From the NCBI GenBank assembly GCA_041905165.1, contig JAYRLR010000002.1:235859-299858 (forward strand): a stretch of DNA of 64,000 nt, given 5' to 3'. This DNA is from Mucilaginibacter sp. (GTDB lineage: Bacteria; Bacteroidota; Bacteroidia; Sphingobacteriales; Sphingobacteriaceae). Below are positions 19,350-26,352 of the stretch, one piece after another (positions within the stretch are counted from its first letter, which is position 1; each line of letters opens with the position of its first letter). The notes under the pieces are model-generated. The model ran no database searches. It saw only the letters and a list, made by a program, of their open reading frames with translations, and had not been told where the DNA came from. Both the position numbers and the translations under genes were made by a program.

Positions 19350-20363
19350 ATGAAGAAAGGATGGCAAATTTTCTGGCATGTGTTTGTGTGGTGCTGCCTC
19401 ATCTCTTTCTTTGTGTTTTTGGCGCATGCCAATAGCAAAATAACACCAAAGGGCCTGGCGGTCATCTTCGTGCTGTTTGGTGGAATCAATATCAGCCTGT
19501 TCTACTTAAACTACCTGGTGTATATTCCGTTATTGCTTGACCGGAAGCGTTATGCATGGTATGGACTTGCCGCCATGGGCTCCATTGTATTGTTCTGCTT
19601 CCTGAAGTATGGAGTAGCGCTTATTTATAAGGAATATGCTCTTACACATATGAATGGTAAAGCCATCCACTTTGCCGACTATATGTGGAGCGCTTTCTTC
19701 ACCGGTCTCATATTCGTATTTTTAAGCAACGTGCTTAAATTCTCTATCGACTGGTTTTTGAACGAACGTATTCAGCGTGACCTGGAAAACCAGCGATTAA
19801 CGGCTGAGTTATCCTTTTTGAAATCGCAGATCAATCCGCATTTTTTATTCAACTCGCTTAACAGTATTTACTCACTGGCGTATCAGCGTTCCGAAACTAC
19901 CCCGGAGGCAATCCTCAAACTCTCGGAAATTATGCGTTATATGCTGTATGAAAGTAATGACAACAAGGTTGATCTGGAAAAAGAGATACATTACCTGCAA
20001 AACTACATCGATTTGCAAAAGATACGTTTTGGCTACAGGGCCTTTGTGGAGTTTGAGGTAACTGGTGATATAAGCGGACAACGCATAGCGCCGCTGCTGC
20101 TGATATCTTTTATTGAAAATGCTTTTAAACATGGGGTGGCCAACGATCCTGCGACGCCAATAAAAATGTCGCTTGCGGTAAAAAGCGATGAACTGTTGTT
20201 TCATATCGAGAATAAAAAACATAACAATAACCGGGACGCTGTTGGCGGCATTGGGTTAATTAATGTGCAACGCAGACTTAACCTTTTGTACCCGGGCAAG
20301 TATGTGCTCGATATTAAGGATACGGAAACCTGCTATGTTTGTAACCTGAGTTTAAAACTATAG
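19350..20363 (+). CDS. Sensor histidine kinase, LytS/YehU-type (His_kinase PF06580)
   Basis: 337 aa with about 4 N-terminal TM helices, the H-box NPHFLFNSLNSI and the C-terminal ATPase-like motif GGIGLINVQRRL. Confidence 0.9.
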   Translation: MKKGWQIFWHVFVWCCLISFFVFLAHANSKITPKGLAVIFVLFGGINISLFYLNYLVYIPLLLDRKRYAWYGLAAMGSIVLFCFLKYGVALIYKEYALTHMNGKAIHFADYMWSAFFTGLIFVFLSNVLKFSIDWFLNERIQRDLENQRLTAELSFLKSQINPHFLFNSLNSIYSLAYQRSETTPEAILKLSEIMRYMLYESNDNKVDLEKEIHYLQNYIDLQKIRFGYRAFVEFEVTGDISGQRIAPLLLISFIENAFKHGVANDPATPIKMSLAVKSDELLFHIENKKHNNNRDAVGGIGLINVQRRLNLLYPGKYVLDIKDTETCYVCNLSLKL

Positions 20364-20412
20364 CATGGCAATGCTTTTTTTAAATAACAATTAAAGATTT
20401 AGTTTTGTAATA

Positions 20413-21147
20413 ATGATAAGGTGCCTTGTAGTTGATGACGAGCCGTTGGCTTTAAACATATTGGAAGATTATATCTCCAAAATGCCGTTTTTAGAACTGG
20501 TAAAGGCTACTACCAATCCTATTGAGGCGCTCACCATGGTGCAGCAAGGCGATGCCGATCTTGTTTTTCTGGATGTGCAGATGCCGGAGCTTACCGGTAT
20601 TCAGTTCCTGAAAATTGCAAACGGAAAAGCCAAGGTAATACTTACTACTGCTTACCCACAATATGCTTTGGAAGGTTACGAACTCGACGTGGTTGACTAC
20701 TTGCTAAAGCCGATTGCCTTTGACCGTTTTTACAAGGCCGTACAAAAAGCACAGGGTATATTACAGCCGGCCGCTAAAGGTACGGTTGCCGAACAGGCGC
20801 CTCAGGTGCAGCAACAGCAGGACTTTAATAACGATTTTATTTTCGTGAAAACGGAGCACAAAATACAGAAGGTGTACCTACACGATATCTTATTTATTGA
20901 AGGGCTAAAGGACTACATATCCATCTTTACCACAACAGAGCGTATCATCACTCTGCAGAATATGAAGAAGATGGAAGATGCTCTGCCCGAAAGGTATTTT
21001 GTGCGCGTGCATCGCTCATACATTGTATCATTAGACAAGATTGACAGCATTGAGCGCAGCAGGATATTTATTGGAGATAAGATTATACCTGTAGGTGATA
21101 CTTACCGCGATGAATTCTTTAAAATTATTGATGGGAAAAATGTGTAG
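20413..21147 (+). CDS. LytTR/AlgR family response regulator
   Basis: 244 aa. The receiver domain reads VVDDEP...DLVFLDVQMP...LLKP and the C-terminal LytTR DNA-binding domain reads FVRVHRSYIV. Confidence 0.9.
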   Translation: MIRCLVVDDEPLALNILEDYISKMPFLELVKATTNPIEALTMVQQGDADLVFLDVQMPELTGIQFLKIANGKAKVILTTAYPQYALEGYELDVVDYLLKPIAFDRFYKAVQKAQGILQPAAKGTVAEQAPQVQQQQDFNNDFIFVKTEHKIQKVYLHDILFIEGLKDYISIFTTTERIITLQNMKKMEDALPERYFVRVHRSYIVSLDKIDSIERSRIFIGDKIIPVGDTYRDEFFKIIDGKNV

Positions 21148-22943: not shown

Positions 22944-25205
22944 ATGCTTATGCAATCTCATTTTAAAAAAATCGCCGCAGAGCTTTCTATCGCTGAAAGG
23001 CAGGTGAGTGCAACTGCCAACTTGCTTGACGAAGGGGCTACGGTGCCATTTATATCGCGTTACCGTAAGGAACTTACCGGCAGTTTGGACGAGGTGCAGG
23101 TAGCCGCCATCCGCGATCGTATGCAACAACTGCGCGATCTGGACAAGCGACGCGAAGCAATTTTAAAATCCTTAACGGACATGGGTAAGCTTACGCCAGA
23201 ATTGGAAGTAAGCTTAAACGAGGCAGAAACCATGGTAGCGCTGGAGGATTTATACCTGCCTTACCGCCCCAAACGTAAAACGCGCGCTACTACTGCCCGC
23301 GAAAAAGGTCTGCAGCAGCTGGCAGATGCGTTGCTCGCTCAGGACCGGTTTGATGTAGAAGCAGAAGCCGAAAAATACGTCGATACGGAAAAAGGTGTTG
23401 CCGATGTAAACGAGGCACTGGCAGGTGCACGCGATATTATAGCTGAGTATGTAAGTGAGCATGCCGAAACCCGTACCAAAATGCGGGAGCTTTTTATTAA
23501 CCACGGTACTATACAAAGCAGGGTAATAGAGGGTAAAGAGCAGGACGGTATCAAATACAAAGATTATTTCGACTGGACGGAGCCGGTGAAAACGGCACCA
23601 TCACACCGTATACTGGCTATGCGCCGCGGCGAAAAAGAAGAAATACTTTGGCTCGATATAAAACCTGAAGAGGAAGCAGCTATGGGGGTGTTAGAGCAGG
23701 AGTTTGTAAAAGGTGGTAATGCTGCCTCTCAGCAGGTAAAGCTGGCTTTAACGGATGGCTATAAGCGCTTGCTTAAGCCTTCGATGGAAACAGAGGTGCG
23801 CTTGTTTACCAAAAAGTCGGCCGACGATGAAGCTATCCGCGTATTTGCGGAGAATGCGCGGCAGCTGTTACTTGCTGCTCCGCTCGGTCAAAAGCGCGTA
23901 ATGGCTATTGACCCAGGTTTCCGCACAGGTTGTAAAGTGGTTTGCTTGGATGAGCAAGGCAAACTGTTGGAGAATGCCACTATTTATCCGCACACCGGTG
24001 CCGGAGGTGTAAAGGAAGCGGAAAAGACAATTGAATACCTCACCGACAGGTACAAGATACAAGCCGTTGCCATTGGTAATGGCACCGCAGGTCGCGAAAC
24101 GGAGGTGTTTGTGCGTAAGCTGAATTTAACTGCTGTAACCATAGTGATGGTTAACGAAAGCGGTGCATCAATATACTCCGCTTCTGAGGCTGCACGCGAA
24201 GAGTTCCCGGATAAAGATGTTACCGTAAGAGGTGCCGTGTCTATTGGTCGCCGTTTGATGGATCCTTTGGCCGAGTTGGTCAAGATTGATCCAAAATCGA
24301 TAGGTGTAGGTCAGTATCAGCACGATGTGGATCAGAATAAGCTGCAAACCTCGCTGGATGATACAGTAATCAGCGCAGTGAATGCTGTGGGCGTAGAGCT
24401 GAACACTGCATCCAAACAAATTCTTTCCTATATATCAGGGCTTGGTCCGCAGCTGGCGCAAAATATTGTGAGCTACCGCGACCAAAACGGGGCTTTTACC
24501 CGTCGAGATCAATTACGCAAGGTAACTCGCCTGGGCGATAAGGCTTATGAACAGGCCGCTGGCTTTTTACGCATCCGCGATGCCGAGAATCCTCTTGATG
24601 CCAGCGCGGTGCACCCGGAACGCTATCCGGTTGTAGAGCAAATGGCCAAAGACCTTAATTGCACCGTACGCGACCTAATGACCAACGACAAGCTGCGCAA
24701 AAGCATCCCGCTGCAAAAGTACGTTACAGATACGGTGGGTTTACCTACATTAAATGATATCGTGGCAGAGCTGGCCAAGCCAGGCCGCGACCCGCGTGAG
24801 CAATTTGAAGCTTTTAGTTTTACAGATGGCGTTAACGCTATTGATGATTTGAAGGTAGGTATGAAGCTGCCAGGTATTGTTACCAATATAACTGCCTTTG
24901 GCGCTTTTGTAGATATTGGCGTTCATCAGGATGGCTTGGTGCACCTGAGCCAGATTACCAATCGGTTTATAAAAGACCCAAACGAAGTGCTTAAAGTGCA
25001 CCAGAAAGTAGAGGTTAGGATTACTGAGGTAGATGTAAACCGCAAACGCATTTCACTATCCATGAAGGATGAAGAAAAAAGCAACAGCGCTAAGCCGCAA
25101 GCGAGGCGAAGTGATAACAGGAACACGGCCACACAAAAAGCAAGGCCCGAGCCCGAAACGGATATGGCCCTTAAACTGGCAGCATTGAAAAATAAGTTTA
25201 AGTAA
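22944..25205 (+). CDS. tex: Tex-like RNA-binding transcriptional accessory protein
   Basis: 753 aa with an N-terminal Tex domain (VPFISRYRKE), a YqgF-like region, HhH motifs and a C-terminal S1 domain (GIVTNITAFGAFVDIGVHQDGLVH). Confidence 0.95.
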   Translation: MLMQSHFKKIAAELSIAERQVSATANLLDEGATVPFISRYRKELTGSLDEVQVAAIRDRMQQLRDLDKRREAILKSLTDMGKLTPELEVSLNEAETMVALEDLYLPYRPKRKTRATTAREKGLQQLADALLAQDRFDVEAEAEKYVDTEKGVADVNEALAGARDIIAEYVSEHAETRTKMRELFINHGTIQSRVIEGKEQDGIKYKDYFDWTEPVKTAPSHRILAMRRGEKEEILWLDIKPEEEAAMGVLEQEFVKGGNAASQQVKLALTDGYKRLLKPSMETEVRLFTKKSADDEAIRVFAENARQLLLAAPLGQKRVMAIDPGFRTGCKVVCLDEQGKLLENATIYPHTGAGGVKEAEKTIEYLTDRYKIQAVAIGNGTAGRETEVFVRKLNLTAVTIVMVNESGASIYSASEAAREEFPDKDVTVRGAVSIGRRLMDPLAELVKIDPKSIGVGQYQHDVDQNKLQTSLDDTVISAVNAVGVELNTASKQILSYISGLGPQLAQNIVSYRDQNGAFTRRDQLRKVTRLGDKAYEQAAGFLRIRDAENPLDASAVHPERYPVVEQMAKDLNCTVRDLMTNDKLRKSIPLQKYVTDTVGLPTLNDIVAELAKPGRDPREQFEAFSFTDGVNAIDDLKVGMKLPGIVTNITAFGAFVDIGVHQDGLVHLSQITNRFIKDPNEVLKVHQKVEVRITEVDVNRKRISLSMKDEEKSNSAKPQARRSDNRNTATQKARPEPETDMALKLAALKNKFK

Positions 25206-25365: not shown

Positions 25366-25842
25366 TTATTCTAATGTGATTTGTCTTCTGATGCTTTCTT
25401 CCAAAGAGATAAACGTCTCGGTGCGTTGTATGCCCGATACACTTTGTATCTGCTCATTTAATACCTCGCGCAGGTGGTTGGTATCATGACAAACGATTTT
25501 TGCAAAAATGCTCCAGCTGCCTGTGGTGTAATGCAGCTCAACAATCTCGTTTATTTTCTTTAACTGTGTTACAGCATCCTGATACTGAGAGCCTTTCTCA
25601 AGGTAAATGCCGAGAAAAGCGGTGATGTCATAACCTAATTTTTGCGGATCGACCTCAAGGCTTGCGCCCTTAATAACACCCATTTCTTCGAGCTTTTTCA
25701 TACGTACGTGTATGGTTCCGCCCGAAACAATCAACTCCTTTGCTATCTCGGTATAGGGGGTAGTCGCGTTCTTCATCAGGATCGATAATATCTGAATATC
25801 GAGATTATCAATTTCTAAATTTTGAGCTTTTTTATGGGGCAT
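25366..25842 (-). CDS. Lrp/AsnC family transcriptional regulator
   Basis: 158 aa with an N-terminal HTH (LDIQILSILMKNATTPYTEIAKELIVSGGTIHVRMKKL) and a C-terminal RAM/AsnC-type ligand domain. Confidence 0.9.
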   Translation of the reverse strand: MPHKKAQNLEIDNLDIQILSILMKNATTPYTEIAKELIVSGGTIHVRMKKLEEMGVIKGASLEVDPQKLGYDITAFLGIYLEKGSQYQDAVTQLKKINEIVELHYTTGSWSIFAKIVCHDTNHLREVLNEQIQSVSGIQRTETFISLEESIRRQITLE

Positions 25843-25939
25843 AAAATGAAAAATCTATATTTTAATACAAGTTTAATTAAAATCTGAATAAAAATAAAAT
25901 TATTTCTTTGAAATATTTGCAAGAAATTCACAACTCCTT

Positions 25940-25947
25940 TAAATTTG
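25940..25947 (+). promoter_or_regulatory. Putative Bacteroidota sigma-A -7 box (TAnnTTTG) for the tRNA-like unit
   Basis: TAAATTTG lies at 25940-25947, with a TTG at 25916-25918 about 21 nt upstream. It sits about 50 nt before the first tRNA-like gene. Confidence 0.4.
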
Positions 25948-25995
25948 TATCAAGCAAATGACAAAATGCTTAACGTTCTTTAAAGAAAAAAACAC

Positions 25996-26111
25996 TGTTG
26001 GGTGGTGAAATTTTTGGCAGACACACCTCCTTGTCCCGGTGGCGGAGATCATGGGAAACTCTTAGCAATAAGAATAACCACTCTGTGAAGGTTCGACTCC
26101 TTCCCCAACAG
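25996..26111 (+). tRNA. Atypical tRNA-shaped gene, copy 1 (116 nt, GUC anticodon loop, ~44-nt variable region); not a standard decoder
   Basis: Acceptor stem TGTTGGG / CCCAACA with discriminator G. Core nucleotides U8, A14, G18G19, A21, U33 and G53-TTCGACT-C61 are all present. The D arm is GTG-AAATTTTTGGCAGA-CAC and the T arm is GAAGG-TTCGACT-CCTTC. The putative anticodon arm is CCTCC-TTGTCCC-GGTGG. The 44-nt variable region contains the GNRA hairpin TCTTA-GCAA-TAAGA. CCA is not encoded. Confidence 0.7.
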
Positions 26112-26135
26112 CACCCGAGCAATTCGGTTATATCC

Positions 26136-26250
26136 TGTAGGATGGTGAAATTTTGGCAGACACACCTCCCTGTCCCGGTGGCGGAGAACAATGGGAAATC
26201 TTAGCAATAAGAATAACCACTCCTTGAAGGTTCGACTCCTTCTCCTACAG
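26136..26250 (+). tRNA. Atypical tRNA-shaped gene, copy 2 (115 nt), paralog of copy 1
   Basis: Same architecture as copy 1. The acceptor stem TGTAGGA / TCCTACA differs from copy 1 at pairs 4:69 and 7:66, and both changes are compensatory. The anticodon loop is CTGTCCC. A 24-nt spacer with a small hairpin separates the copies. Confidence 0.7.
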
Positions 26251-26285
26251 CTCTTCTCATAATTTAGGTTTATAATTGGTTAGTA

Positions 26286-26318
26286 AAGGCCCCTGCCCAT
26301 CAGGGGCTTTGCTGTTTT
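26286..26318. terminator. Rho-independent terminator after the tRNA-like pair, possibly bidirectional
   Basis: GCCCCTG (26289-26295) pairs with CAGGGGC (26301-26307), the stem is extended by AAG/CTT, and it is followed by TTTGCTGTTTT. It lies between the plus-strand RNA genes and the 3' end of the minus-strand gene at 26353. Confidence 0.75.
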
Positions 26319-26352
26319 ATAAGGTTTCGTGTTTTTAGGTAAACCTGTGTTA

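Follow-up and report, generated by a model that had tools for sequence, protein, structure and literature searches.

The window, the whole stretch of DNA analysed here, comprises 64,000 nucleotides of contig JAYRLR010000002.1 from Mucilaginibacter sp. It contains two tandem genes on the forward strand, each encoding a tRNA-like RNA that we call X, and, divergent from them, a gene for an AsnC-orthologue regulator (Table 1). The other surroundings of X in the window are a convergent hypothetical open reading frame and, nearby, Tex, an outer-membrane β-barrel protein and an S41 protease. An earlier note on this DNA had considered positions 26026-26111, with the anticodon stem at one end and G73 at the other; copy 1 in full spans 25996-26112.

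Table 1. Features of the X locus, in coordinates of the window
Feature	Position	Strand	Remarks
AsnC-orthologue regulator gene	25366..25842	-	divergent from the X genes; Pfam AsnC_trans_reg and HTH
Bacteroidetes-type promoter (presumed)	25916..25947	+	-33 box TTTG at 25916-19; 20-nt spacer; -7 box TAAATTTG at 25940-47
5' leader, inferred from promoter position	25953..25995	+	about 40 nt; RNase P would remove it
X copy 1	25996-26112	+	about 117 nt; cloverleaf -28.6 kcal/mol, minimum free energy (MFE) -31.7
X copy 1, acceptor stem	25996-26002 / 26104-10	+	UGUUGGG/CCCAACA, 7 bp
X copy 1, U8	26003	+	
X copy 1, D arm	26005-24	+	G10 = 26005
X copy 1, anticodon-like stem-loop	26026-42	+	CCTCC 26026-26030 / GGTGG 26038-26042
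X copy 1, loop TTGTCCC	26031-37	+	G34-U35-C36 at 26033-35; C37 at 26036; C38 at 26037
X copy 1, variable arm	26043-86	+	44 nt, structured
X copy 1, T arm	26087-103	+	5-bp stem, loop UUCGACU
X copy 1, G73 and C74	26111, 26112	+	CCA not encoded
X copy 2	26136-26251	+	acceptor UGUAGGA/UCCUACA
X copy 2, loop CTGTCCC	26170-76	+	GUC at 26172-74
Trailer motif AATTTAGGTTTATAATTGGTTAG	26261..26283	+	23 nt, exact in 77/129 loci
Intrinsic terminator	26286..26320	+	Rho-independent, also placed at 26286-26310; 10-bp hairpin with conserved CCCAT loop, then U tract

Both copies form a 7/5 cloverleaf whose energy is at most about 3 kcal/mol above the MFE, and both carry G2:C71, G10, C37, C38, G73 and a U·U mismatch in the middle of the anticodon stem. 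The D stem has 3 bp and a large loop, and the anticodon-like stem has 5 bp and a 7-nt loop, YUGUCCC. The earlier note had read the loops TTGTCCC and CTGTCCC, the GUC triplet, C37, C38 and the CCTCC/GGTGG stem with its central U-U mismatch from the two genes, and each of these readings was confirmed in both copies. The copies are 91% identical, and their acceptor stems differ in a compensatory way at pairs 4:69 and 7:66; a 21-nt pattern of the anticodon arm matched the window twice, while 0.00 matches were expected. This count and the acceptor compensation, together with covariation among homologues (below), place the fold of X beyond chance. Nevertheless, ARAGORN called no tRNA in the window and recognised none of more than 200 X copies, and searches of Rfam 15, at the gathering threshold and then at E ≤ 10, gave no relevant match. 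By ARAGORN and Rfam, X thus had no match to tmRNA, YrlA (Y RNA-like) or other Rfam tRNA-like families, and neither the tag ORF of the former nor a Ro-binding helix was found.

Homologues were collected by an exact-pattern scan with one genome per species, which returned at least 120 loci. Among the matches listed, every host belonged to Sphingobacteriaceae or Sphingobacteriales, and the genera were Mucilaginibacter, Pedobacter, Pelobium, Arcticibacter, Pararcticibacter, Anseongella, Desertivirga, Hufsiella and Daejeonella, plus unnamed MAGs; X is present in at least 10 Sphingobacteriaceae genera. A hidden Markov model (HMM) recovered 32 extra copies at the same loci that the exact pattern had missed. 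A second pattern, consisting of the D arm and T loop only and leaving the acceptor and anticodon arms unconstrained, was applied to IMG/VR viral contigs and yielded 25 distinct, divergent members. Scanning metagenomes gave about 100 more loci of host type and about 20 of phage type. As analysed here, the family counts 184 distinct sequences, of which Sphingobacteriaceae chromosomes contribute 159 and phage contigs 25. A locus usually has one copy or two in tandem (five occur in one Pedobacter), and two paralogue types are kept in Mucilaginibacter and likewise in Pedobacter. When X was compared with cultured phages and plasmids by BLAST, only T-arm matches to ordinary tRNAs were obtained, and no prior description of the family was found in Rfam 15 or in full-text literature searches. 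X is a widespread and strongly conserved family, invisible to tRNA finders and Rfam and apparently undescribed.

In an alignment of 108 homologues, 95% of the cells were paired and double changes were seen at 10 pairs; none of 500 shuffles scored as high, and in slid-register controls on the same alignment pairing fell to about 55%. Covariation was found in the acceptor, anticodon, T and variable-arm helices, including acceptor pairs 3-7 and T-stem pairs 49:65 and 50:64. Pair 4:69, for instance, reads A-U in 98 of the 159 host sequences and U-A in 60. In the phage members, each of the five anticodon-stem pairs occurs as three to five pair types. The loop that the earlier note took for an anticodon loop is unpaired, and covariation is seen at each of the five pairs of the stem that closes it. 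An alternative D stem, GGUG/CACC, given by RNAalifold was inseparable in hosts from the 3-bp D stem and 5-bp anticodon stem; the covarying phage anticodon stems favour the cloverleaf. An 8-bp acceptor stem, as in a Sec-like or allo-tRNA reading, was rejected, since C, A and U all occur at base -1. The sequence CACCUCCUU is contained in a stem of host X, and mimicry of an anti-Shine-Dalgarno sequence was considered.

All 184 sequences carry U1:A72, G2:C71, U8, G10, G34-U35-C36, C38, G73 and C74. Conservation of the GUC triplet and G73 had been set in advance as one of the points on which the charging proposal of the earlier note would stand or fall, and both, as well as C38, proved invariant, even in the 25 phage members that were retrieved with a pattern blind to the anticodon. 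The positions of tertiary interactions (U8, A14, A15, U48, G18-G19 and the T loop UUCGA) are likewise invariant, and X has the features by which a canonical tRNA is recognised, i.e., a 7/5 cloverleaf with conserved U8, A14, R15-Y48, G18G19, T54-Ψ55-C56 and A58. Genuine tRNA genes of the same genomes and phages end in N73-C74 followed by A-rich sequence, with CCA not encoded; X thus bears the same 3'-end signature as real tRNAs. Other positions of the anticodon loop vary: position 32 is U or C, 33 is U, C or A, and 37 is any base (among the 159 host sequences, U in 69, C in 53, G in 35 and A in 2). Among decoding tRNAs, U33 and a purine at position 37 are near-universal. The variability of positions 33 and 37 therefore argues against ribosomal decoding of X, while the invariance of 34-36, 38 and 73 is the pattern that an anticodon-reading synthetase would impose. 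X lacks the features of a canonical decoder, namely invariant U33 and R37, recognition by tRNA finders and a variable region of at most about 21 nt.

The variable arm of X ranges from 31 to 77 nt across the family. In hosts it starts with a basal helix, P1 (CGGAG/CUCYG), which covaries to CGAAG/CUUCG, UAGAG/CUCUA and UGGGG/CCCCU. A 4-nt bulge separates P1 from a second helix, P2 (UGG/CCA), which covaries to UAG/CUA, CGG/CCG and UGC/GCA; beyond P2 lie an internal loop, GAAA/UAA, and a hairpin whose length varies. In phage members the arm is a plain long hairpin.

The regulator upstream of X matched the NCBIfam AsnC equivalog over its full length with 179 bits, as compared to 58 bits for Lrp. 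Aligned over its full length without gaps, it shows 46% identity to E. coli AsnC, and proteins from Mucilaginibacter defluvii and Mucilaginibacter sp. UR6-1 match it at 97% identity. The start codon of the regulator lay 147-166 nt from X in about 105 of the 129 loci from genomes and in about 80 of the 120 from metagenomes, and loci outside that spacing lay mostly on short contigs or at block edges. About 10% of the host copies are genuine second loci, beside dnaK, ribE, fpg and others, and no shared theme was found among these neighbours. In E. coli, asnC and asnA are divergent and separated by a spacer of 151 nt. With a divergent AsnC orthologue and a spacer of about 150 nt, as in E. coli asnC-asnA, X occupies the place of asnA. 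In E. coli, AsnC activates asnA under low asparagine.

The promoter boxes of X, which we assigned by the Bacteroidetes sigma-A consensus, both stand out when 101 intergenic regions are reduced to a consensus (TTTG, 20 nt, TAnnTTTG), about 40 nt upstream of X. A conserved AT-rich block lies between the regulator gene and X, and a generic sigma-70 scan found no promoter on the forward strand here. The trailer motif follows the last X copy, at second loci too, and phage copies have no trailer. In genera without X, the trailer persists behind the same promoter, divergent from asnC. As it is kept where X is absent, it looks like an independent small RNA that is co-transcribed with X, and since it is the trailer whose link to asnC is universal, AsnC may act on the trailer instead of X.

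Bacterial aspartate identity is defined by G73, G10, G34, U35, C36 and C38, with five elements graded as strong and evolutionarily conserved (Giegé and Eriani, 2023, PMC9976931). G2:C71 is a minor element for aspartyl-tRNA synthetase (AspRS), and G1:C72 helps positioning of the 3' end in E. coli (PMC9976931). The E. coli identity set that the earlier note gave agrees with this source, and all of its elements are present in both copies. Compared to the full AspRS set, X has everything but G1:C72, which is replaced by U1:A72 (184/184). Other synthetases match less well. LeuRS and TyrRS need A73 and AsnRS needs U36 (PMC9976931), while X has G73 and C36. The earlier note had pointed out that G73 and a long variable arm are also hallmarks of SerRS; both are there, together with G2:C71, but the SerRS determinants C72, C11:G24 and R4:Y69 (PMC9976931) are missing, as X has A72, U11:A24 and W:W at 4:69, and SerRS therefore fits poorly.

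For amidation of Asp-tRNA by the bacterial amidotransferase GatCAB, U1-A72 is the sole determinant, and the anticodon plays no part (Bailly et al., 2006, PMC1635274; also PMC9976931). A tRNA-Asp(U1-A72, ΔU20A) with a GUC anticodon was aspartylated and then amidated almost like tRNA-Asn in vitro, and natural tRNA-Asn with U1:A72 is still aspartylated by bacterial-type AspRS (PMC1635274). An extra D-loop nucleotide, U20A, is an antideterminant that lowers GatCAB efficiency 7- to 100-fold (PMC1635274). X follows the first-pair rule of GatCAB with U1-A72. However, its D loop, with GG-CAGA ahead of the 3' strand of the stem, exceeds that of tRNA-Asn and departs from the rule that no nucleotide 20A be present. 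Among the readings considered, the best fit to these sequence features is an AspRS-type RNA that would be aminoacylatable yet non-decoding. The suggestion of the earlier note that X could be an aminoacylatable RNA diverted from the ribosome thus survived the comparative tests; the precedents it named, peptidoglycan-dedicated tRNA-Gly and cyclodipeptide or lantibiotic enzymes, gained no support, as nothing in the context of X points to them. Beyond that note, the analysis brought up the invariant U1:A72, a D arm of tRNA-Leu type, the strict linkage to asnC and the phage homologues.

The distribution of asparagine synthesis genes was compared with that of X. According to Table S1 of Alperstein et al. 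(2014), Pedobacter heparinus and Solitalea canadensis DSM 3403 each have asnA 0, asnB 0, gatCAB 1, asnS 1 and glnS 1, while 'Sphingobacterium sp. 21' has asnA 0, asnB 1, gatCAB 0, asnS 1 and glnS 1. In the same table, Flavobacterium is given with asnA 0, asnB 3 and gatCAB 0, Bacteroides with asnA 1, asnB 1 and gatCAB 0, and Chitinophaga with asnA 0, asnB 3 and gatCAB 1, the other columns being 1 in all three. The authors asked why GatCAB is kept in organisms that have AsnRS and GlnRS yet no asparagine synthetase, and proposed that tRNA-Asn and a non-discriminating AspRS suffice (Alperstein et al., 2014). In that very genome of S. canadensis DSM 3403, X sits at the asnC locus (L403), and dozens of Pedobacter species carry it as well; no X was found at the asnC loci of Olivibacter, Parapedobacter and Pseudosphingobacterium. 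The match between X and the gatCAB/asnB pattern points in the predicted direction; it is small and rests on three published genomes from outside the genus of the window.

Phage-type X genes lie inside unidirectional, phage-like gene strings, often beside tRNA-Cys or within arrays of about 20 tRNAs. In three phages (L197, L185 and L168), a canonical tRNA-Asp(GUC) is encoded in the same array as X, and the loop of the phage tRNA-Asp (CUGUCAC) differs from that of X (CUGUCUC) at position 37 only. X is thus an additional species and not the Asp decoder. The earlier note had doubted normal decoding because of the pyrimidine at 37, the stem mismatch and the giant variable arm, and this doubt is strengthened by the freedom of positions 33 and 37 and by the co-resident tRNA-Asp. 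The idea that X supplies a tRNA-Asp that the phage lacks was discarded on account of the same three arrays. In another phage (L143), a 275-aa class IIb synthetase catalytic core, with AsnRS, AsnA and EpmA as its nearest relatives, ends 8 nt upstream of X. A general link of X to such truncated class IIb synthetases was rejected, as 79 other loci encode the protein without X within 3 kb; no homologue was found in the window or at host X loci.

Taken together, we tentatively favour, at somewhat less than even confidence, a reading of X as a non-decoding carrier that would be charged by AspRS and amidated by GatCAB to supply asparagine. X would descend from a tRNA whose D arm was of the Leu type, be transcribed from the Bacteroidetes promoter under the AsnC-like regulator and mature as a tRNA does, with RNase P acting at the 5' end, trimming past G73-C74 and completion of CCA. 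AspRS is predicted to aspartylate X because the complete bacterial Asp identity set is present, and GatCAB to convert Asp-X to Asn-X because the first pair, U1:A72, is the GatCAB determinant. The non-conserved position 33, the non-purine at position 37 and the variable arm of 31-77 nt would keep X off the ribosome. X may then be a dedicated carrier for tRNA-dependent asparagine synthesis in those Sphingobacteriaceae that have GatCAB and neither AsnA nor AsnB. In its widest form, which we hold to be possible but a little more doubtful still, X would be a natural non-decoding cofactor for amino-acid biosynthesis that addresses a discriminating AspRS via GUC, C38 and G73 and GatCAB via U1:A72, and replaces asnA divergent from asnC. 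This would explain the asparagine supply of Pedobacter, Solitalea and Mucilaginibacter without AsnA or AsnB, and the phage copies might be auxiliary metabolic genes.

Several observations count against such a carrier. We know of no route by which free asparagine would be released from Asn-X. The Leu-type D loop has extra nucleotides after position 20, and a supernumerary U20A lowers GatCAB efficiency; a clash of the very long variable arm with GatB may add to this. The pair G1:C72 used by E. coli AspRS is replaced in X; about 10% of the host copies lie away from asnC; and there is no obvious reason for phages to hold an asparagine carrier. Moreover, tRNA-Asn and a non-discriminating AspRS would already be enough according to Alperstein et al. 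Nevertheless, if the carrier reading were true, bacteria with AsnRS, GlnRS and GatCAB but no asparagine synthetase would make asparagine on a tRNA that never decodes, and the question left open by Alperstein et al. (2014) becomes testable through X. Whatever its function, the family shows which positions of a tRNA are held by synthetase and amidotransferase recognition and which by the ribosome. To our knowledge, an asparagine carrier of this kind would be the first tRNA paralogue devoted to the synthesis of a free amino acid and regulated like a biosynthetic gene.

The same Asp identity evidence would also apply if AspRS charged X, or merely bound it, for a purpose other than asparagine supply, with X as an aspartate donor to an aminoacyl-tRNA-dependent transferase, a sensor of charge state or a titrator of AspRS. 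The structured variable arm of the hosts, with its GAAA/UAA loop and covarying P1 and P2, suggests an extra dedicated protein partner, and the two paralogue types in Mucilaginibacter and in Pedobacter would be compatible with such a use. We consider it unlikely, as no linked transferase gene was found in about 250 host loci and as U1:A72, the AsnC orthologue and the match to genomes lacking asparagine synthetase would be left unexplained.

That X decodes GAC and GAU, either as a spare tRNA-Asp or as a mistranslating tRNA charged by SerRS like the allo-tRNAs, seems quite improbable to us. Its place within phage tRNA arrays, beside tRNA-Cys, the intact tRNA core with a 12-bp acceptor/T branch and the invariant GUC are what a decoder would have, and G73 with a long variable arm would permit serylation of the allo-tRNA type, for which GUC is a frequent anticodon (PMC5389517). 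But several members have C or A instead of U33, all four bases occur at position 37, and C38, for which decoding has no need, is invariant. Furthermore, canonical tRNA-Asp is present in the same arrays, the serine determinants C72 and C11:G24 are missing, and the 7/5 branch with a Leu-type D arm is neither 8/4 nor 9/3.

We regard it as still less probable that X is a decoy, i.e., a nuclease-resistant mimic of the tRNA-Asp anticodon arm directed, in conflicts between phage and host, against anticodon nucleases or other toxins that attack tRNA. X is indeed frequent in phage contigs (25 distinct sequences), and save for position 37 its loop is that of the phage tRNA-Asp. A decoy, however, would not need invariant U1:A72, G2:C71, G73 and C74, and the host copies are chromosomal, syntenic with asnC over at least 10 genera and outside defence islands. 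The least probable reading, in our view, is that X serves mainly as a tRNA-like processing module from which RNase P and RNase Z release the trailer as the real functional product: X and the trailer do travel together, at asnC loci or not, and the trailer is conserved at 23/23 nt across genera, but it is present without X in Olivibacter, Parapedobacter and Pseudosphingobacterium, phage X lacks it, and a processing handle would not keep GUC and C38.

Compared to known RNAs, X shares G73, G2:C71, G10, the loop YUGUC-C and the tRNA core with canonical tRNA-Asp(GUC). The latter differs by G1:C72, by A37 and invariant U33, by a variable region of 5 nt and by its detection with ARAGORN. With tRNA-Leu, X shares the A15-U48 pair, a long variable arm and a nearly identical D arm (GGUGAAAUUGGCAGACAC in X, GGCGGAAUUGGUAGACGC in Pelobium tRNA-Leu), so that X is a class II tRNA derivative; it departs from tRNA-Leu in having G73 instead of A73, in its anticodon arm and in the length of its variable arm, which is two to five times greater. 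Staphylococcal cell-wall tRNA-Gly and B. cereus tRNA-Other are chargeable tRNA paralogues diverted from translation. They resemble X in concept, whereas no sequence relationship to X is known and no Fem-type or MprF-type gene is linked to it. The tRNA-Asn of the AspRS/GatCAB pathway is similar in combining U1:A72 with G73, in an anticodon arm that AspRS can read and in its occurrence in organisms reported to have GatCAB without AsnA or AsnB. X differs from it in having GUC instead of GUU, a class II shape with a variable arm of 31-77 nt, a Leu-type D loop with extra nucleotides and a promoter divergent from asnC, and, lacking conserved U33 and R37, it is probably no decoder.

The closest described relatives of X are the allo-tRNAs (Mukai et al., 2017, PMC5389517), which are likewise bacterial and phage-borne, have a long variable arm, G73 and non-Ser anticodons including GUC, and are also missed by standard annotation. 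Allo-tRNAs have an 8/4 or 9/3 branch, a Sec-like D arm and 35 anticodons, and their hosts are Clostridia, Proteobacteria and Acidobacteria (PMC5389517). X, in contrast, is a 7/5 RNA (U8 follows the 7-nt acceptor strand, and 49:65 of the 5-bp T stem covaries) with a Leu-type D arm, invariant GUC and C38 and U1:A72, and its hosts are Sphingobacteriaceae and their presumed phages; it therefore differs from its closest relatives in every architectural criterion.

The tRNA-like genes of the window (GUC loop, G73, long variable arm) are followed by a trailer, composed of a conserved 23-nt motif and a terminator hairpin, which is kept across genera. Genera without the tRNA-like gene still keep this trailer divergent from asnC, the AsnC-orthologue regulator gene, and the trailer probably constitutes an independent small RNA, as yet putative. 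On the other side of the locus a Tex gene lies beside asnC, an arrangement kept in many relatives, though not in all, and further upstream a LytTR-type two-component pair is found. Contigs L001 and L002, which come from near-identical strains assembled independently in Logan, both end within the trailer motif (…TAATTGGTT), corresponding to window position ~26281. Since both assemblies break inside the motif, a repeat or strain-variable junction just downstream is suggested, possibly an integration site.

Features at the locus and in related contigs
Feature	Location	Description
LytTR-type two-component pair	window 19350-21147	His_kinase + Response_reg/LytTR; upstream
Tex gene	window 22944-25205	upstream
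Host anticodon-stem region	window 26022-26036 and 26161-26175	ACACCUCCUUGUC
Trailer motif and terminator	window 26261-26320	23-nt AATTTAGGTTTATAATTGGTTAG, then hairpin with conserved CCCAT/CCCAA loop
Trailer at other loci	L404:~2790-2860, L405, L406	reverse strand, upstream of asnC
Phage ORF, 275 aa	L143:11716-12543 (-) = L200:1995-2819	class IIb aaRS catalytic core alone (PF00152)

Across 159 distinct host copies the anticodon-stem region was invariant, and it includes CACCUCCUU, which is identical to the 3' tail of 16S rRNA (anti-Shine-Dalgarno). This stretch is not conserved in the phage copies; the match in host copies may be a coincidence or a second, host-specific constraint.

Host copies at secondary loci, and one degenerate copy, were also observed. 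In Pedobacter sp. SYSU D00535 (L062:3983-5620) the tRNA-like gene and its trailer form a unit repeated five times in tandem with a period of ~370-400 nt, divergent from dnaK; a dnaK-adjacent copy is also present in a second Pedobacter (L017), while further secondary loci adjoin ribE, fpg, a GH3 glycosidase and a class II aaRS. The first of two copies in PJUE01000007.1 (L314), whose host carries an AsnC just 70% identical, has an altered stem and the degenerate loop TTTTGGT versus YUGUCNC, and is probably a decaying paralogue.

Ten viral contigs (L130, L132, L134, L138, L142, L149, L163, L171, L181 and L194) contain odd genes with a tRNA-Leu-type D arm and a T arm. These genes have a pairing acceptor stem, mostly A73 as discriminator (U or C in a few) and, separating the D arm from the T arm, insertions of 30-65 nt. 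These genes are outside the family and may represent more unannotated odd tRNAs or intron-bearing tRNAs.

In one viral contig only (L143), a member of the family is preceded by an aaRS-core ORF, which stops 8 nt upstream of it. The encoded protein belongs to a family found in at least 599 viral stretches, and its nearest relatives are AsnRS, archaeal-type AsnA and EpmA.
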